A DNA stretch of 64,000 bases from Amphiscolops sp. MND2022 (lineage: Eukaryota), in contig OZ076409.1 of NCBI GenBank assembly GCA_964187785.1, forward strand, positions 13,084,001 through 13,148,000, written 5' to 3'. The notes under the pieces were generated by a model. That model saw only the letters and a list, made by a program, of their open reading frames with translations, did not search any database and was not told where the DNA came from. The translations under genes and the position numbers were made by a program. Positions 25,401-53,117 of this stretch are shown here, piece by piece. The number at the start of each line of letters is the position of its first letter. Positions within the stretch are counted from its first letter, which is position 1.

Positions 25401-25462
25401 TATGAGGTTATGTAATCTTACATGATATTATGACCTTTACGGATACCATGCTATATTCCACT
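19430..25462 (-). mobile_element. Decayed Ty3/Gypsy LTR retrotransposon (same clade as 47064-53003)
   Basis: 218-bp LTRs 19430-19647 and 25245-25462; TSD GTGAC on both sides; purine tract next to 3'LTR; frameshifted gag, PR (FIIDSGS), RT (AWLDDII), RH (TDAS, ELELLAVVW), IN fragments. Confidence 0.93.
20036..25231 (-). pseudogene. gag-pol pseudogene of the 19430-25462 element
   Basis: Chain of ORF fragments colinear with the intact 1856-aa polyprotein at 47209-52779. Confidence 0.9.
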
Positions 25463-29477: not shown

Positions 29478-29975
29478 GCAACAATTGGGTTATAAATTTA
29501 CTTCTATGCAAATTGAGACATTTCAAAATGCTCATTTTTCGTCTGAAATTAGGTTTTGTCAAAATATGTCTGTCCACTATCAAATTTTTTCAATTCGAAT
29601 TTTGGACGATGTATTTGAACTACATTGTGTTTTATCAAAGAGGAGAAAGAGGAGGCAGTGGTTCGAAAAGAAGCGGTCCCATTCGTTCCAGCACGAAACT
29701 TTTAGGTGTTTCGACACTTTTATGTGATATTTTTGTTTTAAAAAAGTCCTGAGCATATTTTGGAAACTGCACTTTTGAGCCTTAAGTCGGACGCCGAATT
29801 GGGACGTCCCCGTCTTGTTAATGTACTCTAGTTCTTTGCAATTGCATGTCGTCTCGAAAGTTGACTACGTTCAGATTGGTTTTAGTCGAGCCCATCTTGA
29901 TTTACTGTTGAGAAAATCTTGATCAAAAGTAGCGAAAAGACAATTCTAGAAATCCATCTCCGAAATTCTCCGTTA

Positions 29976-31047: not shown

Positions 31048-32358
31048 TTTTACATTTTTCTTGATAAATGTTTTCCTGATGAGAACGTTCGAAACAGTCG
31101 AAATACGCAAAAAATGTACGCGAAACGAATGGAAAAGATGCGATTGTAGTTCTGGTTGACACTTTCCTATCGGAAGCCTTATAAGAAAGGAACAATAGAC
31201 GATCCGATTTTTCTGAAGTAAAGTCAGCGTAATTGACTTCTTGGTATTATATTGTGATAAGACTTGAACTGTACTTTTCATTATTGAAAATTTACTTCAT
31301 TGAACAGTCCTCATGTTCACGTCACTGCTGCGAAGGTTCTCTGTATTTTTGTCCTCCAATCGATTGATTCATGGTACATGTTCCTGAATGTCAGGAATCC
31401 TCGAATTTTCTCTTTTTACTATTGCATTTAGGTTAAGATAGGACAACCGTTAAAAAAGAGAAGCTGTTTATGTGATAAATTGGAAGTGTGTTTGGCTAGA
31501 GGGTTGTTTTTTTTTACTTTTCAATCTGAAAAGCAGAGTTTTGACACCGCTAATCATCGATTTAGCGAATTAGCGGCCGCGCAAAATTTTTTCAGCGATT
31601 TCATTAGCTATTCAAATTAGCGGCAGCTAATAGATTGTCCAAATTCAAAATTTCTTCTGAGTATACACTGAGTATTCAGAAGAAATTTCGAATTTGGACA
31701 ATCTATTAGTTGCCGCTAATTTGAATCGCTAGTGAAAATCGCTGAAAAAATTCTGCGCTAAACCGCTAATTTCAAAATCGCTATTTCGCTGAAAAGCGTT
31801 TCTGCAAACTGTTGGATGTTTAGCTTCAAGTAAAATGACCTAATTCAGCTTTTGCGAGTAAAAAGTCTATAATTTCATACTGTGCGGGTTTTACAAGGGT
31901 AGGAGTTGGAATTTTTCGACATCTTCGTAGTTTACGCTATAATGCAACCAAATTTGCAGCTATTAATGAAATTTTCAAAATAAACGCTAACAATCCGGGA
32001 ACGCCATAAGTCGCCCCCATATCTAAGGCTCAAAAATATCGAAAGGACATGAAATTGTCAAAAAACTCAAAGTATCAAACTCACGAAAAACCCAAACGAC
32101 GGAACTGGCGCGCCACATTAAAAGAGCGATCCACATTTTTCAACATCCATTGTTGTAAAACATCAAAAAATTGAAGGGTGAAAATATTTAGTGACAAAAA
32201 ATTTCCGAAAAGTCTCACAGTGCCGAAAAAAACTGAAAGGGGGACCCTTTGGGATTTATTAACATCCTTTTGATGAAATTTTTTTTCGAAAGAAAAGTCT
32301 CATTATGCCAATAAAAAATGGAAAGGGGGGACTCTTTAGTCTCTCCCGGTATGGTATG

Positions 32359-34003
32359 TGTCGCGGGCTACCGCCTGCGACGGGATTCTCTATTAAATCC
32401 CCGCCGGAAATAATGCACCAAATCCACCCCCAGGAGTATTACCAATCTGACCAAAAAGGACTCACCGATCAAAAGACATCAGCGACTCAACACATAACGA
32501 GAATGCAGTTAATAGTACCATATGAGACCGAAGGTCGGTCTGTCCACAATAAACTTTTTAAGCCTAAACTCATTCTTATGCGGCTATTAACTGTCAATTA
32601 GAATATTATTTTCATATGTTCAGTGTTTGTGTTACTTGAAGTTCATAGTTGATCAATGTACAATAACAATGGAAAGTTAAGTAAATTAGAGCTGTAAATT
32701 GACGCGTTTGAACAAGCAATTATACGTGGCAAAGTAAAAGAGTTCAAATACTTGTTTCCTTTGCCAAATTGTACACGCAGTCCAAAACTGATATAGCCAA
32801 TCACATCGCAGTGCTATATTAGCTGTAGCCGTTTGGACCTTGAGTCCACCATGGTGTTATTTATTTATAATACTTCTGACGTCACTGTGCTGTAGCTATG
32901 CGGACTCTAAGTCCACTGTGGTGTTATTTACACATTTAGCCGAATATTATGAATATCATGTAGCTGTGACAATTTTCCAATGCACATGTAAATAGTATTT
33001 GACGCTTGCTAGCCAGATTAGTAGTTTAACACTAAATACCCCCTAGCTTTGTTAAGGTTGCTGCTATTTATGGTGAACATGAAATGATGCAATAATGATG
33101 TAATTCTCTCAGGGCTATTTTTAGTCGCCCCTGAGTCTAAATTTAGACCGATGACCTGAAAAATTATGCTAGTCCTGCAGTGTGAAGTACAAATAGTAGG
33201 GACTACGGGTCACATGGGATCATTCGACTGATTATCAAATACCTGCCATTACGCTCACAATCACAAACTTTGACGAGATTCATTTGTACTTTTGATTAGT
33301 TAAAACCAGTCAGAATACCTGCCATTCAGTCAATACATTGTTGAACTAATTGAATCTTCAATGCCTTCAACTAGAAAGCAAAAGGATAATGAACAGCGGT
33401 CTAGACAATTAAACATGATGTCAGACGTGGAAAATGTTGACATAATGCTAGGAAGTTATTCTAGAGATGATGAAGAAAACGTAGCTAGTGAAAATGAAGT
33501 AAATTTGGACTCAGGGTCCAGTCGGCTACAACGGAGTTCAAATGTGATAGGAGAGGATTTTAGATCTTTACTAAAAATAAATAGTAGGGAAAACAGTGAA
33601 ATTACGATTGAGACCACTAGGATGATTAATGAAGAAACTTCTAATCAAATGTCGAGAAAACTGAGTGAAATCAAAAACAGTTTGAATTTTCAAATACAAG
33701 ATGCAATTAGCAATGCAATCACTGAAAAGATACTTCCCTCTATCCAAAATACGCTAGAGACACGGGGGAGAGAAAATCACACCTTGGCGGACCAAGCGGC
33801 CAATGGGCTACAAGATAGCTCAAGGGCAACTAATTTCACCGCAGGGGACCGAGGGTCCGGTGGGCTACAACGGAACTCCAAAGTAGAAAATGTCCAGAAA
33901 ATTTAGAGAAATTGTCACAGAAAATGTTTTGTGCAAGAAAACAGTAGACATATGTCCCGACAGAGTTCAATGGACTCTACTAGTAGCGAACAAAATCACG
34001 ACA
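32359..34003 (+). repeat. 5' LTR (1645 bp) of giant element
   Basis: Direct repeat of 53118-54756 with scattered substitutions. Confidence 0.95.
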
Positions 34004-35111
34004 TGGTGACAGAAGCCATCCCTACCTCACATCTGGTTCCTGAGTTTCTCATTGGACGTCCCATGCAATCCCGAGACCACCTGCAAAGACAAAATTCTAA
34101 CAATGATGAGTCTCAGGATTCAGTCCCCCAGGTCCCTGAGACCAAGTACTCCTTCTGATCCTATTAACCGTTTTGCAGAAGTACTAGTCGGCATGAATAA
34201 CCGTCCATCAGCACAAACACTGATGGTACGCCCAGTCAGCACGACTACACTGACGTTTGACGGCAAATCGCAGAAATTCGAACTTTTCGAAGATCTCTTC
34301 CACACAAGGATAAAAATGCAACCTGATAAGACTGAAACAATGAAAATAAACCATTTTCATTCATTACTACGCAAGAATGCGTTACAAACTTTCCGTAACA
34401 ATAATACGGCAAACAGGCAAACCTTGGAAGACATCTTGGCCGTATTTCGTCGGTAATACGTCAAACCCGAGTCCCAGGCGACCGCCAAACGCAAATGGCA
34501 TAGAATGCTATTTGACCCAAATACCATGAAATTGCCAGACTTCCTTGAGAAACTCAATCAAGGAGCATTAAAAGCGTTTGGTGAGAACGCCCAGGCAATG
34601 ATCGACAGTCTCCTATATGCCAAATTGCCGCCGAAATTGAAACGCTCAACCAATATGGCAAGACTTGAAAACGCTACTTACGAGGAAATAGTCACCCATT
34701 TAGAACGAGAGCTCGAACTCAATGGACTTGAGGAGGGGGACGACATTCCAGTTCCAACAAGGTGTACTGCCCCTACAGCAAAACGACCGGGAACTGGCCT
34801 TCTTTCCTCTGGCATTGATCCCAACATTACTGCAACTATTGCAAAAAACCTGGACATGTCAAGAATGACTGCCGAAAACTTAAGCGAAAGGAGGAACAAC
34901 GCCGCAACGACGGGCAGAATACCAAAAAAGAACATCCAGAATGTCCAACTTGCGACAAAACGAATCACCCGGCGGATCGATGTTGGAAAGGCGTTGGAGC
35001 CCACCTCAAGCCCAAAAACCTTAACTGGAGGACGCCACCACTACAGATACGTCCACCAGTCAAGAACACGTAAAAAAAACAACGTCAATTTTAAAAAACG
35101 CAAAAAACTAG
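33361..35111 (+). pseudogene. gag of giant element (starts inside the 5'LTR)
   Basis: MPSTRKQK... through LTFDGKSQKFELFEDLF, Zn knuckles CNYCKKPGHVKNDC and CPTCDKTNHPADRC; stops and frameshifts. Confidence 0.8.
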
Positions 35112-38100
35112 GTTCGCCACGACTCCAAATAAAAGAAAAACTCCGTGTCAGACAGTATATAAGATCTGACCCTCCTAATATATATTACACTGAGTATTAT
35201 ACAACTCTCAAAGAAACGTCATCAGCTGACTGGCAGCAGCAGATGAAGACTCCACCTACCTTTTCCACCACGTAGGACCCTATGTCCAACCGACTATAAA
35301 ACGATACCTCGACTACACAACTTATACCTCTTATTGATGACTATAACCAATATTACCTTGACCCTGACTATGGTTTCGACCCCTACTGGGAGGCTAATTG
35401 CTACAATCATCATCATCTACACTTTTACAACAATTATAACAAACCAAATCAGAACGTAGAGCCAGATTCCTCTGACATAGACCAAGCTCTGAATCCTGTC
35501 CTTGAAAACGCTCGAGTTGACCCATGGCAACACGGCACACAACTCACTCATCAAACGACCCACTCCGATGCTGGCGACGAATTTCACCAAGTCTCCCTGG
35601 CCACAGCCGTTGCGGCACGCTTCGTGAACACCCTAGCCACCAGAACAGGTGAACCAGACTATGTACCGCTGACAACCAACCTTGGTCTCAAATATAAACG
35701 ACGAATGCTCTATTTTCCAATGGATTTTGGCGAACTAACTTAAGGTGACCTTGTAGACATGGGAGCTCTTTCTAGCGCAATCTCTGAAGCTGATCCACGT
35801 AAAATCCGCTTATTAGCTCCTCAATCTATCGTCAAAGAGGGCCCAGCACCCAACTTCCAAATCATTGTTGCTAACGGACAGCTGGAGACACCAAAGAGCA
35901 CGGTCGATTTTAAATTTGAAATTGGCGACATAGAATTTCTTGAGACATTCATAGTCATGGAAAAACTCACTATTCCATTGTTTGGCTTTTCGTTCCTCCA
36001 ACGAAACAATACCATTCTGGACATGAGACAAGGAGTCCTTAATTTCCATTTCTTTTCCATGCAATTTAAGACTGCTGACCACAAATATACCAACGTCATG
36101 GAACCCATTTGCATTAGGGATGATGTAACTATCCCACCTAATGACCGACACATGGTCCAACTGACTTCGCAACTGTAGGAAGATACTACAGTTACTGGGA
36201 TCCTCCAACCGAGCAACACTCTCACAGATGATGGTGTCATTGCCTTCTGTGCTGCTCTAGTCACTTTGACCAATGGTCAGGTATCAGTTCACCTGAACAA
36301 CTTTACTGACAGTCCGCATACCCTCAAAAGAGGTACGCAAGTAGCCACTTTCACGGTCCTCACACCAGAACAGATGAAATATGTCAAACCTATAGATCCG
36401 TTGACCACATGGCACCTCTTGCAAGATAACCCTGAAAATGCTGCCTACTATGCAAGCAGCTTTATCAAATCTACCAAACCTGAGGACATCAAGGAACACT
36501 ACTGGTTTCCCACACTAGAGGACTCTGGGGACCCTCAGCATCATACGCCAATCCAGAAAAGAATTTTGTCTGAACAAATCAATCTTCAAGAACTAGAGAA
36601 ACTCAATCCTCAAAACAATCCTGAGTCGAGACGTGAATTTTTGTCCAAATTCGACGTGACAGTCTCTATGCTACAACCAACGGAAATCGCTCGCATAGAG
36701 GACCTTCACCAGGCATCGTTTCGACATAGGCATGAACGAGGACTTCAAGGTTAAATTGACACCAAAAGATGACTCCCCGGCCTACAGCCAAAGCCTACCA
36801 ACACCAATCAATCTCAAGGACGATATCCTTGTAGAATTAGCACTACTACACCGCTATGGGGTATTTACAACTCTCCCATTCTCCAAATATGCAAGCCCAA
36901 CTTCTGCCCATAAGAAATCCAATGGTAAAATCGGACTTTTAGTCGATTTACGAAAAATCAAAAACCTCATTTCGGATGACTATATAAACAACAATCACCC
37001 GTTGAGTACACTCACAGATGCAGCCCAACATATGGCCGGGAAAAAGCTATATTGAAAATTGGACTGCTCGCAAGCATACCATTGCCCACAGTTGGCCGAC
37101 CAGCGTTCCATCGAAATGCTTGCTTTCAATTTTGCCAGCAGAACCTTCGCATAAAGAAGATTGGCACAAGAATTTAGCAGAGTCCTATCGGCCTTTTCTA
37201 GTTTTATGCGCGTATACCTGGACAAAGTCATCAAAGCAGACCAATGTGCCCAATATGTTGATGATATTGGCATCGCAGCTAACGAAGCCGAACAACTAAT
37301 CAACAACATAAGGGCCACCTTCCAATGCATCCAGAACGCTGGTCTGAAACTTACCATGCATAAATGCCGCTGTGGTGCAACGGAAAATGATTTTCTTGGA
37401 CGTACCATCACTCCCGCTCAGAGAGTGAAGCCGCAAAGACATAGGGTCCAAAATTTTCTAGAAAATACGAAATTCTCGAAATCGAAGAAAGCACTGCAAC
37501 GTTACTTGGGATTCTTAAACTATAACAGAAACTACATCCCAAGGCTATCGGAAAAACTAACACCGTTTTTCAAATTGCTTACGAAACATGAAAAAGTCCT
37601 GGTAACTCCTACCTTTTGGAAATATATACAGAGATAAGTAAGGCTCTTGACCGATGTTGTGAACTACCGCTCAAACAACCCTTACCGAATAAGCAAATAG
37701 CCCTTGTGACTGATGCTAGCTTTTTGGCCGCAGGGTACGCAGTTCTCATCGAAGATGATCCCCTCGAAAAATATACATCAACGAGGAAAACTTTCGCGCC
37801 AGTAGCTTACGGATCAAAGACTTTTAATCCTACCCAACTGAAGATGTCCATTTACGCGAATGAATTTTTGGCAACTTTTTTTGCCTTCAAGGAATTCGGA
37901 CATATCTTTTGGGGAACCCCGAAACCAGTGAATATACTCACAGATAACAAATCTGTTACACGCTTTTTCCAAACTAAAATCATTCCACCGACCTTATGGA
38001 ACGCATGTGACTATGTAATCCAATTCAATTTCACAATTGCCCATGTTCCAGGCAAAAACAACACCACTGCCGACTACTAGTCCCGACTCGAAATATCTCC

Positions 38101-40600
38101 AAAGGAAAAACTAATTCTCAGAGAAGATATTCCAACGACACCGATTGAACTACACGTCCAATCAGCAGGAGTGTCCGAAGAGGAACACATTTTTTATACG
38201 GAGGATGATGATGAGTCGGAAGAGCAAATTTTACAACGTAAAAAACAAGCTAGAGACCACCCAACCAATCAACTACCGGATATCTCATTCGAAAAAATTG
38301 CTACACACAAAAGCAACTATTGCAATCTCGCAACGCTTCAAAAACTATCATACCCGAACTCTATAGCAGTAAAGCAAAACAATGACGTCATCTTACAACA
38401 ATTGCGACTCAAGATATTGAAAGAAGACTATTCAGAAACCACACTGTTACAAGACACTCGCTACCAACATTACTGTCGCCAGATGGAACGACTGTCTGTC
38501 ATGGATGGAATTATCACTAGGCAGTATTAAGATGAAACAGGATCCATCAAGTACAACCAAGTACTTTTACCGAAACACCTAGTCCCAGAATTACTTGAGT
38601 CCTTACTCGGAAAAGCCAATAGGAACCCAGGATTTCCCAAGATGCTCATCGAAAATCGACAAAAATATTATTATCCTGGCATCGCAAAAAGTGTCAAAAA
38701 ATGGGTTCAAAGATGCGAATTTTGTATAAACGACAAAAGAATCCCGAACTCATCCATCACACCTGAATTGCTCAACTTACCCGAATGGGACTTAGGCCCA
38801 GAGGACGCAATGCAAATTGATTTGTTGCCTAACCTACCCGCAAGTGGAAGATACGAAAACATAATAACCGCAGTGGATGTGTTTTCACGATACTTTTTTG
38901 CTTACCCAGTCACAGACGCTTCGGCCACAAACACGGCAAAGGTTATCCTTGACATAATGACCAAACACACCTACTTGCCCACTATTTTGATTACGGACGA
39001 AGGTACGGCCTTTACGTCCAAATTGGTAGCTGAAATTGCTCAAATTTTGGGAATTCAAGTGAAATGCGCAACTACAAAACACCCACAAACTACATTAGAG
39101 TGCACAGGCAGGCCTTATTTGCTCAAAGCGCAACTTTGTGCTTTCAATATCTCGGATTCCACGACCATACCTTTAACCGTGCAAAATTGGCAAATTATGT
39201 CATAAGTCCCGGATTCCACGGATTTCGTCGTGGAATCCAGTAACAAAAGCTTAGCGGTACGCACTGTCGACATGCAGCTGTGTCCCGGATTCCACAAAAA
39301 CGTAAGTTAAAACGTGTTTAAAATTGAATTAATTTAAATTTTTCTACCTTTCCAAAAATGATAACTCAAAATCAGCGGACCAATCAGAGAGCAGCGGCAA
39401 AAGTGTCATTATAGCAGCAGTTTTGGCGTGGAATCCAGGACAAGCCTTGTGGTGGAATCCAAGACACGCTTAACATCAAAGAGAAATTTTGCCCTGGATT
39501 CCACGACTTTTCTCAAATTTCCTGTCCGGGATTCCACGAAAAGCAGCAAAATAGCTTGCCTATGCACTGTAATGTATTGGTTAACTCGAACGCACACACG
39601 CTAGCCTCAAAACGAACCTAAAATGGCCTCAGGGGACTACCGGCGACAATGGCATAAATATTTGCCTTTAGCCGTAATAAACTATAATACGACCTACCAC
39701 GCCACCCTGGGCTGTGAACTATCCAGAATCTTTCATGGACGAATCCCATATAAGATATTAGATCACAAATTGGGCCTTAATCTAAACCCGAAGGTCCTTC
39801 CGACCACAGATTTTGCTAAGGAATTTCGAAGACGCACGCAAATACTACTCGATTCCACAAAGAAAAACATCATGCAATCCTATTTGAAATACAGAGAATA
39901 CTACGACCGAAAGGCCAAAGCCGCTCCTTTAAAACAGAACGACTTTTGTTTAATATTACAACCTATCGCAGATCACCAAGGATCCAAAATTCCGTATTGC
40001 AAATACAGTTGGAAAGGACCCAACATTGTAGAAAAAGTCTTACCAAACGAAAATTACATAGTCAGAAAACTAAACTCTGATAAAACACACAAATTTTGTG
40101 TCCAAACACACAGTCCGAACACAAATCTTACATCGTATCAGACTGCGCAAATACAAACCGAACACCGTCTTACCGGACATCCGACCGGAATGCAATTTGC
40201 AACCGGACGATGAAATTTTTATTCCACAGGACGACCTGTACGTCATTACGTGGGAAACCAATTTTGGAGAATTTCCCAATTCAACCAATGAAGTCGCATT
40301 TCTCGCGGGTCTATGTGCCACAGACACTTCCAATGGTTTGGAGGCCGATACTAGCCCACCAGACGCAATTTTCACCGACGTGGACTTTCGGTCCACTGGG
40401 CTACACAAAAATGATGATTTTGCTTCGCTTTAAAAAACCCGTTCACACAGTACAAATGATGAGAACGACGATCAACAATCGTCAGGGGGGAGCGGTACTA
40501 TCGTGTCCGAAGTATTAGATGATGAAAAAGATGATATGATCGTAGACAATGAAAGTCCTAGAGGGGGAAATATAACTTCACTGATGAATACAGATACTAA
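35112..40600 (+). pseudogene. pol of giant element (PR, dUTPase-like, RT, RNase H, IN)
   Basis: VDMGALSS (PR), QYVDDIGI (RT), VTDAS / LTDNKS (RH), IDLLP / ITDEGTAF / LERTH (IN), many disablements. Confidence 0.9.
39093..39574. mobile_element. Tc1/mariner-type MITE inserted in integrase
   Basis: TIR CATTAGAGTGCACAGGCA / TGCCTATGCACTGTAATG, TA TSD; removal restores KHPQTIG.LERTH. Confidence 0.9.
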
Positions 40601-40755: not shown

Positions 40756-43700
40756 TTATTTCTTACTACTCCCAGCGATCAGTCGAGTGGCAGATTCAGC
40801 CAATTCATCATCAGTTAATAAGTGACTGCGATGTTTGTTTGTCTTGGGCACTGCAAAAGGCTTCAAGGGAGAATTACCTTCGGGCACATAGGAATCTTGA
40901 ACAGCATTTTTGGGTGCCTCACTTGGATGGAGGGCTTCTCTAATTTTCACTCTGCCAAAGTGATCCACACTGTCCCAAGGACTATACACATCAGTGAGCC
41001 CTGAATTCCCAAATGACTGCTCCAGAGAAAGGAAGCGAGTTACAGATGCGTCCGAAGTGAGAACATCGAGTCCTCGAGCAGAGTATCCAAGATATGACTG
41101 GATCGGCGCAATGACATCAAACATGGGGCTAAGGGGATCGTCCGTACGGTGTGACCCAAATTTAACTGGAGAGAAAGACAATCGAGGCTCGTCTAGACGA
41201 AAACAGCTTAGCCGGAATAGCCGGTGCAAATGAGGCCTGGTCCTGAGGGCCTCTTGTCCAGAAATGAACTCAATAGCATCGGCAATTAGCAGCTTGGGTT
41301 GTTGTGTGCCTGGGTGCGATTGGCGGAGGACGTCAAGGAATGACACGTACTCCTCAGTATAAACCAATTCGTCCTCCCTCTGCTGCACTACACCCCTCAA
41401 TCGGAAGCTGGAGAATAATTGCTTAAAGCAATATGAAGCGTTTTCAGGAGGATCGACCAGCATGATGTCTAAGTCAAATGAACCGAGCCCTTTGACGATA
41501 TCTGATGTCAAGCGGCTCAGTCCTTGTATACCTTTAAACAGAAAAATGACATAGCTACGAGCAGTTCTAGCAAATTCCTACTTGTTCCTTTTGGTGATGT
41601 CATCCAGAGTGAGGCCTTCATTTTTCTTGTCTCCTTCTCTGCTCCAGCTTTAACTTTACAAGGGGGATCCAATCTTCAATCGAGTTTTGATCGCGACAGG
41701 AAATCACTAATGGCAAGAGCGTTTACGTCTGGGATGGAGAGATTCAATATGGCCTGATGATCAGTCTCATTAGGTAAATTGGAAGGCCGGATGCATCTCC
41801 CCCCCCCCCCCACTTTAAATAGAAACTGGCTTAATTCGCGAAACACGTGGAAACCTCGGTCGCGTCGTTGCTTCAAATTGACCACGAAACTGGTGGTATA
41901 ATCCCGGACCAATCGGTAAGAGATTTCCAGTCGTGTCGGGAGGAATTCGATCACAGACCATGAACCAGTCCGGACTTTGTGGCTATAAAACAATACAACC
42001 AATGAAATACTGAAGGTACGAATGGCTAGAAATGGTTGGTCAGAAAGGTATATCACAAAATAATTTTGGAAAGTAAATCATTCCACGAAGGACTGGTAGG
42101 CCAGGTATCCTGACCAAGGAACTCTTGGGATGATTTTAGGATACAAATGAATGTAGTATACCATACCTGCCTACGTACTCCTTGCATCTCTTGGGAAGCT
42201 GAATGTTGCGTCAGGTAGTCGGTGACTTTAGTCCAATTCTTTAGCAGCTCCTGACACAGAGTGGGCAAACCATTCAACTCAAGCTGGCAAGTCCTGATGG
42301 CCTGAATTATAGAAACATCAAAGAAAATCCTTTGAAACTACTTATGGCTAAGCAAAACGAAGATTACCTTGGACAAATCAGGTGACAGCATCATCCACTC
42401 TAACTCAAGACTGGACCCAAGAGAGACAATTAGGTAATGCAAAACTGCAAAGAAGTCGATTCGCCCAAATACACGAGAGGCTTTCTTGTGCATAAGGGTT
42501 CTCAGCTGCAATTCCTCGAGTCTTGGGGGGCTTTGCACGGCATATGGTCTATAGGGGCTCAGATCTAATAGTTCGACGGTCTAAGAAGTGCAACCGGTTA
42601 CACTAATTATTTCGGGACCGGTGAAGATAGCACCCATCACATGTGATATCAGTGTAATCTCGGCCTGGCTCTGGCCCTGTGCCCTTCCAGTTATTTTCAG
42701 GAAGACTCTGCACAATTGGTCTCCTTGCCAAAAGCAAAGGAAACTGAGCAAAAAGATCCCATCATTGGCAAATTCCAAGGCATATTCTTTGTTGGAGACA
42801 TTGTGGTGCCCGATGTCACTTACAATCTCGAGGAACATTAGGTGGAACAGCACCTGAAACGCAAACCAATCATTATATGGGAAGTATGAGGACTGAACTA
42901 CCCAGAGACCTAGAAACAGGGGATGCTCATAACAAAACTAAACAACCACTAATTTAGTTGTCATAGTTGAGATAGGAAAATTTTGGATGATGGAAATACT
43001 CACTGTGAGGCGCTCTTTAGTCCAGTTGAAATCAGTGAATAGTGCTTGATGATTCACTACGACCCAATGTCCCGCCAGAAGTTGCGCTTAATGTCAATGT
43101 CACCATAAGCAGGAAGAAATCGCTCAAGCACAGAGATCTGGATCCTAGCCCGACTTTCTGACGAGTATGACACATGGTCTGCTCCGGCCATGTATTCATC
43201 GTAAAATGAGAGTTTCTCCCCAAGGTCAACTAACTTGTGGGATGCGAGCCTTGGTGTAAGGGTCAATCTTGTACAAGTATTCATATCTCCAGTGTTGGTC
43301 CCTTCTAAGGTGTTTCTCACTGGCATGATGTCTAAGGATTTCACGGACGCCCTTCCAATGAATGGAGATATTAGCCTTACAAATCTGGCAAAAGAATTTG
43401 TGTTTATTCCAGTTGGGATCAATGGGACCAGAAACGAAGATTCGGGTCCACTCCATGCCCTTAAAATAGGCCTCCTTCATCACCTTGCTTGTCCTTGAAA
43501 TTTTCCGCCGCTTGCTGGAGCCTTTGCCCTGTGCTGGGACAAAACGTTCTTTTGGGTCCCTGGAACGCTGCTGTCGATCCTGAATGGCTTCGTCCCTGAG
43601 AGCAGCTAAAGTTTGTGCTACGGGGCAGTCCGCATTTAGTGAGCCCACAGGGGACTCAAGGTCGATGCGACTACACCCAGGCTTAGACGAGACAAGAGGG

Positions 43701-44632
43701 GGCTCAGCGATTACTTCTGGGTCAGAATGCTCATACGAACAACCAATGCTGGCAAATCCGTCGTCGCTCCGAAGAGCACCACTGGTGTCACTGCAACCGC
43801 CAGAGGAAGAGTCTAGGTCCCGTCCCCAGCTTGTGACGACAGAAGAACCTCTTCTAGCGGAACCTTTCCTGTTGGTGGCTTTGCCAACTGGTTCAGTCGT
43901 CAGAGACAATTGGATAGCCCTGTAAATGAGGGTTTCCAGCATGTCGTACGACGCCCTGGCAGTCTCATCAGCCACTACTCGTAATACATTGTTAATCTGC
44001 CCTCCAGTAAATACTACGGCTGGATTCCCTGGAGGCAATCTAAAGGACCCGTTTTGGGCAAAACATTCCTTAATGAGGGCACTACTTCTACCTCCCAAAG
44101 AGAGAGGTCTAGGACCTACTGGGGGTTGGATTGCAGTGTCATCACTATCTTGTTCACTCGTGTCGGGTGGCGTTCTCCGGGCCCCAGGATGCAATGCATC
44201 CGTTAAAGTTGAACCTACCCCTTGTTCAGACTCACCGCCTGAAATGTGACCATATTCTGAGTCACTGTGGTTTGTTGTGGGCTGCTGAATAGTGACGTGC
44301 TTATCAACTATCGCCGGTCTCTTTTGACTTCCTTCAGTGACTCCGACCGGCATGTTGCCCCTAAGGGCTGCCTCAGCGGTAGAGCTTCCTGAGGGAGAGG
44401 CGGATCGTGCACGCTTTTCAGCTGGTTCTGAGTTCTCAGGTTCCGGGTTGTCAATAATCTGTCTTGGAGAGTCAAGGAACACTACGACTGGGGAACTTGG
44501 TTCAGGTAATTCAATGCTTTCAGGAAGTTGAGCGCTAGGGGTAATGACCAAAAGTTCACTGACGCTTTCACGGTCCGCTGTCTCAGTCACCTCTGTGAAT
44601 TCTCTGGCAGCTGCTTCTTCTAATTGGCTCAT
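40756..44632 (-). pseudogene. Antisense spliced gene inside the giant element: disordered N-terminus, BED-type Zn finger, hAT-transposase-like body
   Basis: ORF chain 44632 to 40756; FFCQICKANISI...ILRHHASEKH; candidate introns 42854-43003, 42302-42367, 41532-41581. Confidence 0.75.
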
Positions 44633-44872
44633 CTTTCATGTGATGTAAGTGCCACAGCTCTCATTTGATCCATTACTATCAGTGGCGAAAAGACGAGATA
44701 TAAGGGATAAGCTGGGAGAGTCTTGTTGCTGCGAAGACCCTTGGTCCATTGGTTCCGAACGAGTGTGGGCTTCGTCAATTATAGTCTGATGTTGACGCTG
44801 AGTTACCTCTGGCTGACTAGTTACGGTTGCCGTTTCATTTTCAACAGGCGTTTGCTGTGGTTGGTCTTCATT

Positions 44873-45227
44873 TTTAGTCGGCGTTTTCGAAGAAAATCCC
44901 GACTCTTACACAGGCTAGTTTTTTTCGTCAGTTCAACGCGTAACGTCCACATTTTGTGCATTAATGCAATTAATGCACATTTACCAACTTTTACCATATG
45001 TACTTAGTACTTCATTTTCAACGCATCCAAAGCGTCCTCCTTTTACATTTTTCGGCACTTTGCGACTTACCGGAAACTTCAAAAAAAAATTCAAAAAAAA
45101 TCGGAAATTTTTTTCTTCAATTTTTAGTTTTTTGAGAGCTTTTGTTGTCTCCAGTTGTTGAAAAAGTGGTTTTCGAGTCTTTTTGAACCTTAGAAATGGC
45201 GCCGACTTGGGCCGTTCCCGGCTTGTT
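44873..45227 (+). mobile_element. Complete short HINE-like element inserted in giant element
   Basis: TTTTTAGTCGGCG..CCCGACT start; GGCGCCGACTTGGGCCGTTCCCGGCTTGTTTTT end; inserted in a T-run, no TSD. Confidence 0.75.
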
Positions 45228-47063
45228 TTTGCCTAAACGGAAAGAAATAAATTTACGCAGTTCACTTCCTGAGTATGAATCCATTTTGCCGCACACTTTC
45301 AAAACTTCCGGAAGTAAGTTACTATTCTTGTTTCAAGGCGAAAACATTTCACGATGGAGGAAGTAAATTACGTCGAAACCAAACCCTGATCAACTTTGGT
45401 TAAGCCAAAACTCAAAAAAGAACCAACGTGATGATGTTTCCATATTGAGCAAGCAGAACTTGTGACAACGCCGCGTTTGATCTTGGAATGCTGCAAATTT
45501 GTATTTTTTTGGACGACAGTTGTTAGGGAAGCACTAAGGGCAAGTCTGTGGGAATTCGGACAGAGGGTCGGACATGGATGTATAGCAAGAATTGTGTTCC
45601 TGATTAATCCCAATTAAAATGTAACAATCGGAAATCGAAGTAAGCAGGTGAGGAAGCTATAAAGACTGATTTGTCGCAGAAACGACAGGAGGACGCTGTA
45701 TCACAAACACAATGAGAGAATACTCTCAAAAGGCTAAATATTTAAACTTGACTAAAATCTTTTCGACTGCAGACTGTTGAGTGATTTCAAAATGTTTACA
45801 TGAACATTACTAACCCAGGACGTCGTGGCTAAAATCACCTTAACTTAATATTAACCGATATAATTACAAACATGCATAGCCTTTTCATGGTTGTGGTCTG
45901 CCAGCAACATTCATGAAAACGGGCTTTTTTCGGCCTTCAAAACTTCCATTCACCTATTAGAGCATCGTTCATTTAATCTCACGATCTTTATTCACTTTGC
46001 TTGGAGGATTTACTCATTCATCTATCGCTACCGCCTCATTGGCTAACGCGCTGAGTGTAGACGCGCGGACCGGTGGTTCTTGATGGTGTTTTTATTTACC
46101 AGCGATTATTACCAGTCAACACTTTCATTGTTAATTATCTACTCTCTAGCTGTTGAACAAATAAACTGAGAACCTCTCAAGTGACCATTATTGAGTGTTT
46201 CAACCCATTCTTGAAGTTAACCTCATATTATAGGCCTACTTACAAGGAAAGTTAGGAAAAGTCCGGGGAAACTAGCGACTCTGATTCCCCGCGTAACCGT
46301 TTCCCGCGACACCGGGGAAGGCCCAAGGTTTACTCGGCGAGAACGGATCATTCTACCCATTTCGAAGTTAAAATCAAGTTGACATTACAACCATTGCAAA
46401 GAAAACCTTTTTGTCACGATTTTGCCGTGAGATGTCTCTACAATCTGACGTTGAGGAGTTCATCAGACCTTTGGTGAGTGCGCTTTATGAGTCCTCAGAA
46501 GAAAACATGGAAGTTGATTCCGCTCCAATGTCCGTGATCGAGCAGGAGCAAGACGCGGACAGCGATATTGAAGTGATTGCCTGCTACAGAAAAGCTCCAG
46601 TTTACCCACCACAGTTGGCCGGAGGGCAAGCAATGACTTTTGATCTGGACACTTGCGGCGAATAAAGGGCACAATACCCATACGGTCAGGCAGGATCAAT
46701 CGGTTCAACATTTGACCCATCTGACAGCCTGGTCGACTGGTTCGTTGGAAGCCCCCCCCTACACGTACTTATACCGCAGGTGATCTTGACCATCACATAG
46801 CAAATTGCAGTCAACTAGAGCCAATATCTTATTCCCCAATGTCACACCCGTTAATTGATCAGTGGTCATCAGGAAATACAGGTAATGACCAGTGGTCAGA
46901 AGATCTGCAACGGATCGATTCTTGGGCGTCCAATCCGCATATAACAGGACTTGCAATAGGCGCTAGTGGCCTTTGTGGTGAGCCAAATTATATCCAGCGT
47001 GGTGATTGCGCGGTGTGCGGCAATTCGTTCGCAACTATACAAGAAGAAATCACCCTTGGGTAT

Positions 47064-50000
47064 TATTGTATTCTGTGAGAATATCTCAATTCAAAACGTA
47101 TGTAAAATAACAATGTTTTCTCTGGATCGAAACGTACTATAATGAGGTCAAACTTTATCGAACTAAATGTTTGTAGGTAAATACAAACTCAAAATGGCAA
47201 GTTGTTTATCAACAGTTCTCAATTTCTCTATTCTTCATTTCCCCCTCTGTAATTGGATGGGAATTATCCGTTTGATTTCCGTTGCCGTCCAGATTGGTGT
47301 TGTGGTCGGTATGCCGTCCACGTCTTGGTTTAGGATCCGGATGTCCGTGATTGGCATGGTTGCTTTCCGTTGACTGGAACATTTGTGGTTGTGAACGGTC
47401 TACTGGTTGTCCTCGTCTTCCCGCTCGAGCATTTCTTCTGTTGTCTCCAGTAGTGGTGACAGGTTTAGTCGTTTTGCGGTGTTTCCTGTAATCAGATTGA
47501 TTAACTGGATTATTTAATCTAATGATTGGATTTGTTTTCGTCAGACGTTTTGACCGGCGTAGGTTAGTTTCTTGTGTGTTTTCTAGTTCTTTATCTATTT
47601 CAGTGCTAGAGCTAAGATTACTTGCTAATTCTAGATCTGAATCTATAGTATTAAATACCTTACCGTTTATGTCTTTCATGTGTAGGTCTTGTCCTGACTG
47701 CTGAGTGTCATTGATGACATGATCTATGTCGGATTCCGACATTTGTTCTGCGTTAATTGTGAGTGGTCCCATTGGTTTGTTGTTGTTTCTTCCCTGTTGT
47801 TTTTCGGGTGAGGTTGACGTTTCCCGGTTTCTGATGAACCTTGGTTTTCCTCTACCGAATGTTCCACTTTTTCGGATGTTCGGTGTTTCCGGGCTAGTGT
47901 CCAATTGCTCTTCTTGTGATTGGGATAGCTCTGGAGTTGTTGGTGGCTTGTCTTCTTTGCGGGAAAATCTTCCGTCCGGTCCTCTTGGTCCGGTTCCTCT
48001 GTTGGAGTTTTCCTGTTCAAATGGTGTAATTGGTTTACTAATCAGTTTTCGATGAATAATTTTATTTTCAGCTGTAGTTATGGTATGGTTAGTTCCCTTA
48101 ACCGCTGTTTGTAATTGATCGGAATAGGGACTTTCAAATTTTGATTTTGTGTTTTTCCATTCAAAGAATTGAAACGGGTATTTACTAACCGTTTTGGTTG
48201 ACTTTCTCTTTTGTTTCATGGGTAGATGGTCGGAACTACCGCCTTCTCCACTGAACGTGTAAACCTGTAGGGTTTCTGGTTTTGCTGAAATGGAATGGTT
48301 ATTGGTTAACTTTTCAATTTCTTTCAATTTTAGCATATTACTCAACTCCGTGTTTGGTTCTCTACCGAAGTGTAATTCAAATGCTGATTTTCTAAGTCTA
48401 GTGTGTGGGGTTGTCCGCATTACTCCTAAAGACAGATCGAGTGCTTTTCCGAACGGTTCACCCGCTTTTATGTTGGTTAGTAAGTTTTCTTTTAGTGTTC
48501 TCACCCCCCGTTCCGCTAGGCCAGTGGGAGTATGTATATACGGTGTCCCGTATATCAGTGAGATGAAATTCTTTTTACAGAATTCTCTGAAACAGTGACC
48601 TGTGAACGCTGACGCTTTATCGGTTCTAATCGTTTTAGGTATTCCGTTTAATTGGATGTATTGTTGAAGAAAAGTTACCGCCGTTTTTCCGTCTGTTGAT
48701 TTGCAAAGACTGGCTGCCGGCCATTTGCTAAACCGGTCCATGGAGAGTAAGATATAAAATTTTCGGTTCTCTTCCGTGATTGGTCCAATGAAATCCAATT
48801 GGATTTCTTCGTTTGGTGCGCTTAATGGTGGTAAACAGTTTTGTTCCGTTTTAGGTATATTTGGTTTAAGATTCTTACCGGAAAGTTTGCACGGTATACA
48901 GCTGTCGCACTTTCTTTGTATTGCTTCGGATATTTTCGGCCACCAGAAGTGTTTTGCCGCCATTGTCATCTTGTTGATGGCGGGATGGCCTTTGTGAAGC
49001 AGTGTGACGACCGTTGTTCGCAAATTTGTGGGGACAATTTTTCTTTCTTCAAAGAATACCAATCCGTATCTCGTGGATAGTTTTCGTTTGTATTGGTTGT
49101 ATTCCTCTGGAATGTTATCGTACTGTTTTCTTTCCAGGCACACGAGGGTTTTCAACAATTTCGGGTCGTTTGTTGTCTCCGTCATTAATAATTGGAGATC
49201 CGTAGCAAATTCTTTTTCGGTCTCCCTGACGGTGTTTTCATGGTCCCAGTTATTTGGTTCCAGAGCTTGTATCCTCGGGGCTTGTCCCATTTTAATATAT
49301 TGGACGCTTTTTACTCCGAGGTAGTTCGCCCAATTGATTGTGGGTACTTCCAGTACCGACGGTGCCATTTCCGAGTCACTGGAAATCTCTCCCTCCTCCA
49401 TCGGTGTCTCGTCCGGTGTTTGGCTTGTTGTCGGATGTTCTTGTGATGTGCTCTGGTAATCCTGTGGGATAAATCCGCCTTGTAAATTTCTGGTTTCTTT
49501 GAATTGCCAGTCCGGGAAGTAGTTCGTCTGATTTTGCGGGTTTGTAACTTCTATGGCAGGGCTTTCCAGTCGATTTATAATTTCGGTAAGCCTTTCTTCA
49601 ATTATTTTTCTCTCTCCGCGGAGGAATTTTGGCTCATGGTATTTCTTCCATTTGCCGTTTGATAGTCGGTAGATTCCCGGCTTTACGATGTTTCGCCATC
49701 GTTCAATTAAATTGATGGTTTCTTGGGACGAATCGATTCTTTCAAGATTGTCAATAGTTTTGGCGTCCATTATCGGTGAATTGACGTTACTGTTTGGAGT
49801 GTTAATGAGGCTGTGAATGGCGGTTTGTTCACGCGTGTTGTTCGATGACCGGTGTTTGTTTGCTTTTGTCGAGTTTGCTATGCTATTCGCCGATTGTGAT
49901 TGGTTGAAATGGTTGTTAAGGCAACCGAGTTTAGAAACGAATCCGTAGTGCGGTGCTATGCTGTTAATGACGTATTCTTCTTCGTATACGTCATCGCTTT

Positions 50001-53000
50001 GCGCCGGTGCGATTGGATTTCTACTCAAGTAATCGGTAAGCGCTAGATGTTTTCCGGCGATATGGTTTACATTTATCGTAAAGTGTGCTAATCGGTCCAA
50101 CCAGCGTGTTAGCCGCGCGCTATATGTTTTGTTAGAGCGGTTGCGTTTTATTAACGGTTCAAGGGCTTGGTGGTCCGTCAGGAGTTTGACGGGTTTTCCG
50201 TAGATGTAAAGGCGGAAGTGTTCTAAACCCCAAACAACCGCTAATAATTCCAGCTCGTTTATTGCGTATTTTTTTTCCGTGTCCGATAGAAATCTGCTTG
50301 CGAACGCTATCGGTTTTAAATCTCCATTTTCTTGTTCTTGCCAAAGAGTTGCACCTAGGCCTTTTGTACTGGCGTCTGTTGTTATGGTGTTCGATCGAAT
50401 GGAGCTATAGTGGGCAAGACACGGTATTTCCGTGATTTTGCGTTTTAACTGGTTAAATGCTTCGGAATGTTCCGTTGTCCAGTTCCAATTGTTTTTCTTT
50501 TTCAGTAGCTGTCTCAGTAGGTCCGTTTGTGCTGACAAATTTTCAATGTATTTTGACAAATACTGAATCGCGCCTAAAAAGGATTTTAATTCCTTTTCGT
50601 TTTTTGGTTCTCTCAGTTCTTGTATTGCTTTTAGTTTGTCTTGTAACGGTCTAATACCGTTTTGATCAATTTTATGACCCACCCATTCTATTTCAGATTT
50701 GAAAAATTCTGATTTGTTTTCACTGAGTCTGTAACCTGCGTTTTCTAGTTTAGTTAATACTTCGGTTAACTCACGTTTGTGTTGTTCTTTTGTCCCTTTT
50801 GTGACAATTAATATGTCATCTAGCCACGCCGGGTGTTTGTTCTCCAGTGTTTGGTCGATCTTTTCTTGAAAAATGGTCGGGATGTCCGCCAATCCGTAGA
50901 AACCCTTTAGGAATCTGTAATATCCGGTGAAGTTGCCTCCGGTTATTGCGAATATACACAGATCCTTTGCTAATTTTGATAGCTGCAATTGGCCATAGGC
51001 GTAATCCAGGTCCAGTTTTGATATCCAGATTATATCAGTTTCTCCGTCTGCTATTTTTCTTGATATTCGAGATATCAGCTCCTCCATATTCGGCATTTGT
51101 GCCTTTCTTTTCACGGTTATTTCGTTTAATTTCCGTGAGTCTAGAGCGATTTTGACCGTTTTATCTTTCTTAACGGTTATTACTGCTGGGCTTACAAAGC
51201 AGTTTTCGTCTATGTCGGTTGCTCTTTCTATGTGCCCGTTTTTCTTCAATTTTTCTATTTCTTTACCGACCGCTGGTTGTAAGTGTATCGGTATTGGTCG
51301 GCCTTTCTGTTGTATCAGTTTTGCATCCGGTTTTAGTTGAATATCTACCTCTATTCCCTTTATTGTTTTATTTTCGTGGAACAGGTTATTGAATTTTTTC
51401 TTCAACTCAGTTACGTCCGGATTTTCTTGGATATTTTGTATTTTCAGGTTAGACTTTTCTGTATTCAATTTGATTCCCAATTGATTCATCCAGTCCAGTC
51501 CAAGAAGTGGGTTTGTTCTTTTTGTTGTTATTAGTAATTCCAGGTTTTTTGTTTCTCCGTTGATCTCTACTTTTGCCGTTGTTTTTCCTTCGAACTTTAT
51601 TTTATTGTTGTTGACGTCTCTATACTCCGTGTGTAGAGAATATATAGGTGTTATATGGTTGAATAATTGTTTTGGTACCAGTGTGACCGGTGATCCGCTA
51701 TCAATTATGAATTTGATTGGTCGGTTATTAACCAATGCCGTCATGGTGAAGAATGGTTGTCCGTCTTTGGTGTTTTGTTTTGTTGAATGGACCATTCTTG
51801 TGATGAGGTGTATTCTGTTTGGTGACCATTCATCTTCTTCTGCGCTGGATGCTTCCGATTCCGGTTGGATGTGTTTTATTCTTCGGTCTGTCTTTTGTTT
51901 AGTTCTACACAGTTTCGCGTAGTGACCGATTTTTCCACAGTTTAGGCATTTCTTTGTTTTTGCCGGGCAGTCGTGGGATTTGCTCCAGTTTGGTGCGCCG
52001 CATCTAATACAGTCAACTTTTCTGAATTTGTTCGGTTTCTCTTTTTCCAATTTTTGGTAGTTTCTTTTTCTCTCTACGTGTTTAATTTTTGTTTCTTCTT
52101 CTGAGTCTCGTGATTCGTTCATTTTTTCGTACATGTATTCGTGGATTGTGTCGGTAATGGTTTCCACCGACATATCTCCTTTTTTGATTTTCTTTTTTAG
52201 ATCGTTGTCTCCAGTTGTTTTTCCAATGACTGAGAGGAATTTTGAGGCCAATAATTCTGCTGCTGTTATTTCTTCGAATTCGCAGTTTTTTTCTATTTCC
52301 AGGATTCGTTTCCAGGTTTCGGCTGCCGATTCTCCCGGTTCTCTTTTTAGATTGAAGAAGTCGGCCCTGCTATGGTGTTTGTTCCGTTCGGGTATAAAAT
52401 GTAATCTGAACAGTGCATATAGACGGTACAATGGTAAAGAGGTTGGTTCTCTTTCTCTTACCGTCTTTGTCATTTCTGTTAGTGCTGACTGTCCGATTGC
52501 CCAGATGAAGACATCTTTTATTTCCTCTTCTAATTGGTCCCTATATTGTGGCAATACTTCTTTGGAGTTTGTCATCTTTGATAGGTCCAATTCGCGAGTC
52601 ATTTTTATATATTGGATAAATTTCCTCCACCAGAGCTTTGCACTGGTGTGGTCATTTTTTTCCAAGATCGGTATGGGTAACTTCTGGGTAGTCGTCCGTT
52701 CAACCGATCGTGCAGTGGTATTGTTTGGTAGCGAGCGGCTGCTCGTTTCTCCCATGGAATTATTTGGTTCGTCTTCCATTGTATTGTAGTTTTCTTCTGA
52801 TATTTCAGAATGCTGTCTGCGCCATATTGTATTCTATGAGAATATCTCAATTCAAAACGTATGTAAAATAACAATGTTTTCTCTGGATCGAAACGTACTA
52901 TAATGAGGTCAAACTTTAGTTATCAACTAAATGTTTGTAGGTAAATACAAACTCAAAATGGCAACAGTTGTTTATCAACAGTTCTCAATTTCTCTATTCT

Positions 53001-53003
53001 TCA
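47064..53003 (-). mobile_element. Intact-looking Ty3/Gypsy (Mag-like) LTR retrotransposon nested in giant element
   Basis: LTRs 47064-47237 and 52825-53003; perfect TSD GGTAT; PBS TGGCGCAGACAGCA (tRNA-Ser-like 3' complement); PPT AGAGGGGGAAA. Confidence 0.96.
47209..52779 (-). CDS. Single-ORF Gag-Pol polyprotein (1856 aa)
   Basis: Two Zn knuckles (CIRC..H.C, CLNCGKIGHYAKLC), PR FIIDSGS, RT KLDLDYAY / WLDDIL, RH TDAS..ELE..TDH, IN HHCC + D-D-E (LDFIG, RTDKA, AERG); no internal stop. Confidence 0.95.
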   Translation of the reverse strand: MEDEPNNSMGETSSRSLPNNTTARSVERTTTQKLPIPILEKNDHTSAKLWWRKFIQYIKMTRELDLSKMTNSKEVLPQYRDQLEEEIKDVFIWAIGQSALTEMTKTVREREPTSLPLYRLYALFRLHFIPERNKHHSRADFFNLKREPGESAAETWKRILEIEKNCEFEEITAAELLASKFLSVIGKTTGDNDLKKKIKKGDMSVETITDTIHEYMYEKMNESRDSEEETKIKHVERKRNYQKLEKEKPNKFRKVDCIRCGAPNWSKSHDCPAKTKKCLNCGKIGHYAKLCRTKQKTDRRIKHIQPESEASSAEEDEWSPNRIHLITRMVHSTKQNTKDGQPFFTMTALVNNRPIKFIIDSGSPVTLVPKQLFNHITPIYSLHTEYRDVNNNKIKFEGKTTAKVEINGETKNLELLITTKRTNPLLGLDWMNQLGIKLNTEKSNLKIQNIQENPDVTELKKKFNNLFHENKTIKGIEVDIQLKPDAKLIQQKGRPIPIHLQPAVGKEIEKLKKNGHIERATDIDENCFVSPAVITVKKDKTVKIALDSRKLNEITVKRKAQMPNMEELISRISRKIADGETDIIWISKLDLDYAYGQLQLSKLAKDLCIFAITGGNFTGYYRFLKGFYGLADIPTIFQEKIDQTLENKHPAWLDDILIVTKGTKEQHKRELTEVLTKLENAGYRLSENKSEFFKSEIEWVGHKIDQNGIRPLQDKLKAIQELREPKNEKELKSFLGAIQYLSKYIENLSAQTDLLRQLLKKKNNWNWTTEHSEAFNQLKRKITEIPCLAHYSSIRSNTITTDASTKGLGATLWQEQENGDLKPIAFASRFLSDTEKKYAINELELLAVVWGLEHFRLYIYGKPVKLLTDHQALEPLIKRNRSNKTYSARLTRWLDRLAHFTINVNHIAGKHLALTDYLSRNPIAPAQSDDVYEEEYVINSIAPHYGFVSKLGCLNNHFNQSQSANSIANSTKANKHRSSNNTREQTAIHSLINTPNSNVNSPIMDAKTIDNLERIDSSQETINLIERWRNIVKPGIYRLSNGKWKKYHEPKFLRGERKIIEERLTEIINRLESPAIEVTNPQNQTNYFPDWQFKETRNLQGGFIPQDYQSTSQEHPTTSQTPDETPMEEGEISSDSEMAPSVLEVPTINWANYLGVKSVQYIKMGQAPRIQALEPNNWDHENTVRETEKEFATDLQLLMTETTNDPKLLKTLVCLERKQYDNIPEEYNQYKRKLSTRYGLVFFEERKIVPTNLRTTVVTLLHKGHPAINKMTMAAKHFWWPKISEAIQRKCDSCIPCKLSGKNLKPNIPKTEQNCLPPLSAPNEEIQLDFIGPITEENRKFYILLSMDRFSKWPAASLCKSTDGKTAVTFLQQYIQLNGIPKTIRTDKASAFTGHCFREFCKKNFISLIYGTPYIHTPTGLAERGVRTLKENLLTNIKAGEPFGKALDLSLGVMRTTPHTRLRKSAFELHFGREPNTELSNMLKLKEIEKLTNNHSISAKPETLQVYTFSGEGGSSDHLPMKQKRKSTKTVSKYPFQFFEWKNTKSKFESPYSDQLQTAVKGTNHTITTAENKIIHRKLISKPITPFEQENSNRGTGPRGPDGRFSRKEDKPPTTPELSQSQEEQLDTSPETPNIRKSGTFGRGKPRFIRNRETSTSPEKQQGRNNNKPMGPLTINAEQMSESDIDHVINDTQQSGQDLHMKDINGKVFNTIDSDLELASNLSSSTEIDKELENTQETNLRRSKRLTKTNPIIRLNNPVNQSDYRKHRKTTKPVTTTGDNRRNARAGRRGQPVDRSQPQMFQSTESNHANHGHPDPKPRRGRHTDHNTNLDGNGNQTDNSHPITEGEMKNREIENC

Positions 53004-53117
53004 GGTATCTAGAACAAACTCATATCCCGGAAGAAAACTATGCGCAGCGAGTTCGGAGGAGGAATGCTTTCTTAGCAGGTATGAGAGCCGGAAGCGTGGT
53101 TTTAGTCCCAGGGGGAG

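Follow-up and report, generated by a model that had tools for sequence, protein, structure and literature searches.

Evidence for a spliced antisense gene carried by a family of animal LTR retrotransposons

Results

A predicted antisense gene within a decayed Ty3/Gypsy-type element

We analyzed 64,000 nucleotides (nt) from the genome of Amphiscolops sp. MND2022 (positions 13,084,001–13,148,000 of contig OZ076409.1, assembly GCA_964187785.1; hereafter the window, from whose first letter all positions are counted). In the window lies a dead copy, diverged by roughly 5%, of a Ty3/Gypsy-type long terminal repeat (LTR) retrotransposon with a high copy number in an animal genome, and between the pol gene of this element and its 3' LTR lies a second coding region that runs on the opposite strand and is the subject of this study. 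That the host is an animal and not a plant is indicated by the genome itself, in which rhodopsin-type G protein-coupled receptors had at least 75 matches at E ≤ 1e-10 (1,133 first-look candidates).

A blastn comparison of the window with itself delimited the element by two LTRs in direct orientation, a 5' LTR at 32358–34003 (+ strand, 1.65 kb, with the first part of the gag frame inside it) and a 3' LTR at 53117–54756 (+ strand). The two are 95.1% alike over 1,647 nt and enclose 22.4 kb, or ~16.5 kb once a nested insertion described below is subtracted. Between them, a decayed gag-pol region (34010–40600, + strand) is broken by many stops, and its successive plus-strand open reading frame (ORF) pieces match the Pfam families gag-asp_proteas, RVT_1, RT_RNaseH, Integrase_H2C2, and rve; alignment places the pol stop of this copy at 40598–40600. 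The same order of protease, reverse transcriptase, RNase H, and integrase was found by Pfam in a better-preserved copy, and this domain order together with the LTR pair identifies the element as a Ty3/Gypsy-type LTR retrotransposon. The layout of the family is 5' LTR, sense gag-pol, antisense four-exon gene, a spacer of ~1.1 kb, a sense frame that we call ORF3, and 3' LTR.

A first-pass annotation of this DNA, made from the sequence alone, had proposed a minus-strand coding region between pol and the 3' LTR, and both the ORFs and the LTR self-comparison bear this out. Copies of the 40756–44635 stretch are many in the 1.07 Gb genome, at 67–90% identity, and we modeled the gene by comparing copies, fetching 18 and aligning 11 of them with the window copy (12 in total). 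The resulting model is a four-exon gene on the minus strand, running from an ATG at 45284 to a stop at 40756, with a predicted zinc-finger product of ~1,280 residues. Exon 1 (43004–45284, ~668 codons in an intact copy) would encode the start MD(S/T)YSG, a long low-complexity part, and a C2H2-type finger; its ATG is conserved and lies in the context GGCAAAATGG. The start had earlier been placed at ~44632 and the product estimated at 1100–1200 amino acids (aa). Both values are too small; the apparent start there is an in-frame TGA (44638–44636). Exon 2 (42368–42853; 486 nt, 162 codons) encodes the predicted first half of an RNase H-like fold, exon 3 (42167–42301; 135 nt, 45 codons) is open in the window, and exon 4 (40756–41982) comprises 405 codons plus the TAA at 40758–40756 in intact copies, or 1,218 nt. 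With the pol stop at 40598–40600 and the antisense stop at 40758–40756, the two genes converge to within ~155 nt.

Three conserved introns

Because exons 2, 3, and 4 measure 486, 135, and 1,218 nt, all three predicted introns are phase 0. Intron 1 (42854–43003, − strand) is 150 nt long and reads GTGAGT...TTTCAG; intron 2 (42302–42367, − strand) is 66 nt and reads GTAATC...ATTCAG; and intron 3 (41983–42166, − strand) is 184 nt and reads GTATGG...TTATAG. GT...AG pairs are common in any one copy, so that a single copy offers weak evidence for an intron, and what makes these three significant is that GT-AG is conserved even though the intron interiors of the copies have diverged to K ~1.0. Among the 12 aligned copies, the GT-AG pair is kept in all 12 for introns 1 and 2 and in 11 for intron 3. 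The exon sequence flanking the introns is highly conserved, their interiors are variable, and their lengths range over 137–154, 62–71, and 172–187 nt, respectively, with differences that are not multiples of three. A wider and cruder scan of all loci retrieved found GT-AG in 16 of 18, 10 of 11 (plus one intron-less class), and 15 of 19 distinct copies for introns 1–3. One exception is a real AT at the 5' site, and several others seem to reflect boundaries misplaced by one or two bases in decayed copies. Judged by comparison of copies, the three segments thus have what is expected of introns, a fixed and conserved GT-AG pair around a free interior and a removal that restores one continuous frame.

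This model keeps two of the three introns that had been claimed for the window, the phase-0 gaps at 43003–42854 and 42367–42302, and replaces the other. The gap proposed at 41581–41532 corresponds in all 11 other copies to coding sequence without a break (...NKEEFARTARSYVIFLFKG...) and has an in-frame TAG (41580–41578) in the window, and the true third intron, at 42166–41983, had been overlooked. We also considered a further candidate, the 72–74 nt missing at 43233, as a lost intron, and rejected it since all 11 other copies have coding sequence in its place; what breaks the frame at ~43233 is the loss of 74 coding nt from the window copy.

At C5:16523686-16524954, exons 1 and 2 lie only 93 nt apart in a 631-aa open frame, and the gap there may be a shortened, in-frame intron 1.

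Indirect signs of splicing

One copy, L057, was examined in full. Its exon 1 of 2,004 nt is followed by an intron 1 of 140 nt (GT..AG), a fused exon 2+3 of 621 nt, an intron 3 of 179 nt (GT..AG), and an exon 4 of 1,218 nt, and the joined exons give 1,280 codons without an internal stop. The expectation that the frame is open after intron removal therefore holds in this one copy, with the introns as corrected here. Intron 2 is absent from L057 to the base: the end of exon 2, TTGTCTAAG, abuts the start of exon 3, GCCATTAGG, and these are the same words that flank intron 2 in other copies. The exon 2–3 fusion occurs in 5 of 150 scored places, which are 98–100% alike, and the other listed places match exon 2 alone. 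Confinement of the fusion to these few near-identical places indicates that the absence of intron 2 is a recent loss.

A second case comes from P0118, a distant homologue in a public collection, 36% identical over exon 2, in which exons 1 and 2 are joined without intron 1 in a gap-free alignment. We infer that such base-exact removal of a GT-AG segment reflects recombination with a reverse-transcribed, spliced mRNA. The loss of intron 2 in a young subfamily and the absence of intron 1 in P0118 thus suggest, indirectly, that the introns are spliced.

The gene is found throughout the element family

Three complete elements show the identical order of parts: C6:8904763-8921432, with LTRs 87% like those of the window; C2:46010462-46025950, with LTRs 74% like those of the window; and C6:27613437-27628895, whose own LTRs are 98.2% alike. 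Even where the LTRs of complete elements are only 74–87% like the window's, the gene faces pol in convergent orientation, which supports the proposal that it is carried by the retrotransposon family. For at least 25 of 39 scored pol matches, a gene match lies 3–7 kb downstream of pol on the opposite strand. Gene matches were scored for the best 150 of 7,993 and the best 150 of 9,160 first-look candidates, with 60 further matches beyond those listed. All 150 scored matches to the finger region of exon 1 have E ≤ 1e-113 and at least 70% identity, and by our own count ~72 of the 150 lie in open frames of 660–916 aa. The scored matches comprise at least 150 gene copies, and the copies in the genome probably number thousands. 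Every copy whose surroundings were inspected (the 25 pol-linked places) adjoins pol, and the gene is present in all subfamilies sampled.

Selection on the exons and on the region upstream of the start

We estimated dN and dS (nonsynonymous and synonymous divergence) from the alignment of copies by the Nei-Gojobori method. A dN/dS below 1 between copies had been set beforehand as a test, and all four exons gave 0.06–0.25 for divergent copies. In comparisons of the two main subfamilies, dS is often saturated, and intron K, which ranges from 0.1 to 1.2, follows dS or stays under it. Among near-identical copies (2–3% difference), dN/dS climbs to ~0.8. This is the pattern expected if the gene was under selection while its lineages were active and decayed neutrally after insertion.

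The 150 nt upstream of the ATG (45285–45435, − strand) are a candidate promoter and 5' untranslated region. Between the main subfamilies, K is 0.29–0.31 over these 150 nt versus 0.98–1.17 for the introns of the same pairs, and 0.43–0.74 for more distal upstream sequence. Conserved blocks within the 150 nt include ACTTCCGGAAG and ACTTCCTCC, which may resemble ETS-type sites. Constraint on this segment makes an internal promoter upstream of the ATG, and hence separate transcription of the gene, plausible.

The predicted protein and its homologues

From its N-terminus, which is conserved, the product is predicted to run through a long disordered region and a C2H2/BED-like zinc finger to an RNase H-like fold, and to end in a helical domain. 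A Pfam search with exon 1 gave zf-C2H2_ZN292 below threshold. We built structure models exon by exon, and in the model of P0118 a finger made of a beta-hairpin and a helix precedes the order beta1-beta2-beta3-alpha-beta4-alpha. Neither of the models searched with Foldseek matched an entry of the PDB at E ≤ 0.001; the weak top rows were Ty3 and murine leukemia virus (MLV) reverse-transcriptase chains, EndoV, RNase H1, and the Mos1 transposase. We read the matched part of the Ty3 and MLV chains as the RNase H domain. A language-model search returned hAT-derived clusters (DUF4371, ZBED RNase-like, and DUF659) with scores of 0.87–0.93, and exon 4 compared with the ESM atlas reached a best score of 0.76, which is uninformative. 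Three weak leads, from fold and language-model searches, concur on a finger, an RNase H-like core, and a helical domain, as in hAT transposases.

Homologues are numerous in public collections. A search with exon 4 returned 99 proteins, the most distant at 34% identity, none of them named or with a Pfam domain, and a search with the finger region returned 426 clusters at 50% identity. Most of the longer homologue frames listed stop within a few residues of the end of exon 1, and the frames homologous to exon 4 begin just upstream of the exon-4 start. Two homologues at 36–39% identity open with the same MDSYSGSLPRK motif, and a metagenome contig (L058) carries a homologue at 29–33% identity with intron 1 in the same place. 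Protein searches with exon 4 or with the 469-aa ORF of the window returned no annotated full-length relative, which is weak evidence, and a scan of viral contigs found no relative.

The window copy is a pseudogene

The antisense gene of the window is a pseudogene, and the element copy that carries it is dead. Exon 1 has acquired a ~355-bp repeat (44871–45229), the TGA at 44638–44636, the 74-nt deletion at ~43233, and a 1-nt deletion at ~43064. Exon 2 has a single lesion, an in-frame TAG at 42583–42581, and exon 4 has a 1-nt insertion at 41949, a poly-G expansion at 41811–41806, a 1-nt deletion at ~41635, and in-frame stops at 41678–41676 and 41580–41578. This load of lesions fits the 5% divergence between the LTRs. 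The repeat in exon 1 is short, interspersed, and absent from the C6, C5, C2, and C7 copies, and at least 12 other genomic places hold copies of it that are 88–94% identical; it resembles a short interspersed nuclear element (SINE) or a miniature inverted-repeat transposable element (MITE).

Other features of the element and the window

Beyond the antisense gene and the ~1.1 kb spacer lies ORF3, so that the two are divergently arranged. A tblastn search with the ORF3 of the C6:276 copy located the window's version at 46432–47063 (+ strand), resuming at 52994–53136 past a nested element, in four pieces at 55–68% identity. ORF3 is conserved in the outer family; it starts MSLQ.DVEEFIRPLVSA, it ends in the first bases of the 3' LTR, and in an intact copy it is ~255 aa long and had no match in a Pfam search.

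The nested element (47064–53003, − strand) is a small Ty3/Gypsy-type element that splits ORF3 and is separate from the antisense gene. Its 180-nt LTRs are 95.6% alike and enclose a 1,874-codon stop-to-stop frame with a zinc knuckle, protease, reverse transcriptase, RNase H, and integrase; a clean 5-bp target duplication, GGTAT, flanks it. It is a later insertion and seemingly intact. A second element, 69–73% similar to it, lies at ~21000–23800. As for the outer element, TGGTA stands immediately before its 5' LTR, but at the other end this word is 3 nt off the end of the 3' LTR.

Within the outer element, the gag showed a sub-threshold match to DUF1759. The frame that holds gag (ORF 33304–33906) reaches back into the 5' LTR, which is unusual for LTR elements, and the same stretch of peptide is therefore also encoded in the 3' LTR; the overlap recurs in the C6:276 copy (locus L050:7043-8830, − strand). 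A stretch of ~486 bp within pol (39091–39576), which all other scored pol matches skip, is probably another private insertion.

Tandem repeats were seen in two settings. A tandem array of about four 1.18-kb units, 95–98% alike, occupies 24776–29522 of the window, with a related partial unit at 19430–19746. At locus L054 (C11:42203000-42208576), ~178-bp tandem repeats, ~94–95% alike over 5.6 kb, adjoin one copy of the element.

Discussion

A probable spliced antisense gene of the element

The evidence very probably describes a spliced antisense gene borne by a family of animal LTR retrotransposons, as judged from the comparison of many copies. If so, the gene belongs to the element, and its introns read CT..AC in the full-length genomic RNA. 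In that orientation they would not be removed before reverse transcription and would be copied at every retrotransposition. Antisense transcription would start at an internal promoter just upstream of the ATG and end ~155 nt from the pol stop, and splicing of the three phase-0 introns would yield a protein of ~1,280 residues.

As to what this protein does, the likeliest reading, to which we give slightly less than even odds, is that of a catalytically inactive nucleic-acid-binding accessory factor, hAT-like and derived from a transposase, that the element needs for propagating or regulating itself. A more far-reaching scenario seems to us distinctly less probable, though worth stating: a whole successful clade of animal LTR elements may have made a dead hAT-like zinc-finger protein an obligatory accessory gene, its introns shielded by antisense orientation, with the loss of intron 2 arising when a retrotranscribed, spliced mRNA recombined back.

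Several observations count against these interpretations. None of the 12 aligned copies has a fully intact gene, and for 14 of the 39 pol matches the presence of the gene falls outside the scored gene matches. Neither any exon nor the 59 exon-4 homologues searched matched a Pfam family (E ≤ 0.1–1), including hAT, BED, DUF4371, Transposase_28, and the plant mobile domain. A sequence search of solved structures in the PDB gave none at E ≤ 1 and three chance-level rows at E ≤ 10. The acidic residues that a DDE enzyme would have after predicted beta1 and beta4 are, by eye, not conserved among the window family, P0118, and L058; without conservation of these residues, the protein is probably not an active transposase, and the hAT link itself may be wrong.

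Alternative explanations

The hAT-like leads, weak as they are, could instead mean that the segment is an independent hAT-like DNA transposon that inserted into the retrotransposon, encodes its own transposase, and is carried passively. An ancient nested insertion is plausible as the origin of the gene. As a description of the segment today, we consider this very improbable. Bounding terminal inverted repeats, named beforehand in the first-pass annotation as a feature that would mark such a transposon, are absent: none credible was found at the gene boundaries, where the best pair is 15 nt long, A/T-rich, and within the coding sequence. Position, orientation, and distance to the pol stop are constant across subfamilies with LTRs only 74% alike, and, with at least 150 copies of the gene found, all 25 pol-linked places inspected adjoin pol. 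Neither the failure of hAT Pfam domains to match nor, by eye, the lack of conservation of the candidate catalytic acidic residues is what a working transposase would lead us to expect.

Alternatively, one lineage might have captured a fragment of a host gene by transduction, as a passenger that does nothing for the element. LTR elements are known to capture genes in plants (parts of PMC7264820), and the introns show that any source was genomic DNA and not mRNA. Captured passengers are typically present in one or a few copies, according to the same portions of that paper (PMC7264820), whereas the gene described here is in all subfamilies sampled and belongs to a family that is very large elsewhere, with the 426 clusters noted above. 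Its dN/dS of 0.06–0.25 in all exons, across subfamilies with saturated dS, and the conservation of its start codon and upstream region also speak against a functionless passenger, an account to which we give hardly any weight. The same small weight goes to the idea that the gaps are never spliced, the region consisting of several separate antisense ORFs or of decayed coding sequence with coincidental GT-AG pairs. Gene callers do output each exon as an ORF of its own. Against this, phase-0 continuity yields a single frame of 1,280 codons, and GT-AG is kept while the interiors diverge near-neutrally with indels that are not multiples of three. A young subfamily has lost intron 2 with base precision, P0118 lacks intron 1, and the position of intron 1 is conserved at ~30% protein identity.

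Significance

If the more far-reaching scenario above holds, a retrotransposon would own a 'host-like' gene, complete with promoter, introns, and a long history, its homologues reaching down to ~30% identity with the same intron positions. Accessory genes of LTR retrotransposons are in general little understood. Antisense ones have been described mainly in plants, as single ORFs whose function is unknown, and in a few retroviruses; exons of the gene reported here are annotated in public collections as hundreds of unnamed 'hypothetical proteins'. The system makes three questions testable: whether retrotransposition, or escape from host silencing, depends on such genes; whether introns persist in a retroelement thanks to antisense orientation; and whether a retrotransposon has recruited a protein from a DNA transposon. 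In addition, the precise intron loss would preserve a natural trace of splicing and of intron removal by reverse transcriptase within a mobile element.

Comparison with known systems

A partial literature search, made without Repbase-type annotations, turned up no report of an antisense gene with introns in an LTR retrotransposon of an animal. Known systems share single features with the gene. Like hAT transposases and their derivatives (ZBED, DUF4371/FAM200; Hermes, 8edg), its product would combine, in the same order, an N-terminal zinc finger, an RNase H-like core, and a large helical region, as far as weak matches indicate. Unlike them, it matches no hAT, BED, or DUF4371 Pfam domain, its acidic residues are by eye unconserved, and its gene has no terminal inverted repeats and lies inside a retrotransposon.

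Among retroviruses, antisense genes of deltaretroviruses are mentioned in the sections of PMC11963269 that we draw on. The gene described here resembles HBZ of human T-cell leukemia virus type 1 (HTLV-1) and its relatives in being a retroelement gene on the minus strand, where those genes have a regulatory role. HBZ, of which a spliced form exists, is a small bZIP protein whose gene starts in the 3' LTR. Here, by contrast, the gene is predicted to start internally, ~1.9 kb away from the 3' LTR, and to encode a large, unrelated protein, and three introns in the coding region are conserved family-wide. An accessory protein besides gag-pol is also found in an animal LTR retrotransposon, Cer1 of C. 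elegans, which encodes CERV (as outlined in PMC10309623). Unlike CERV, the product of our gene model would come from an antisense gene with introns of its own. CERV itself arises from the sense strand, through splicing of the RNA of its element.

Plant elements of the Tat lineage offer two further comparisons. One of these elements, Ogre, has a sense-strand spliceosomal intron between gag-PR and pol that is spliced from the element's RNA (per the account in PMC4408406); the introns described here differ in being antisense and part of a separate gene. In Ty3/Gypsy elements of the Tat/Retand lineage (Retand, Grande1, and RIRE2), most copies have a conserved antisense frame, aORF-3R, between pol and the 3' LTR, for which an own promoter and possibly a DNA-binding, transposase-related domain have been proposed. 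In the parts of these papers that treat them, such frames are described as single ORFs that encode a Transposase_28 or plant mobile domain, of unknown function (PMC11963269; PMC7264820; PMC4408406), and the main texts of PMC11963269 and PMC7264820 nowhere use the word 'intron'. The present gene shares with aORF-3R its antisense orientation and its place between pol and the 3' LTR, which it holds at no fewer than 25 of the 39 scored pol copies. It differs from aORF-3R in having no Pfam domain, in its animal host, and in its predicted structure of four exons and ~1,280 codons.

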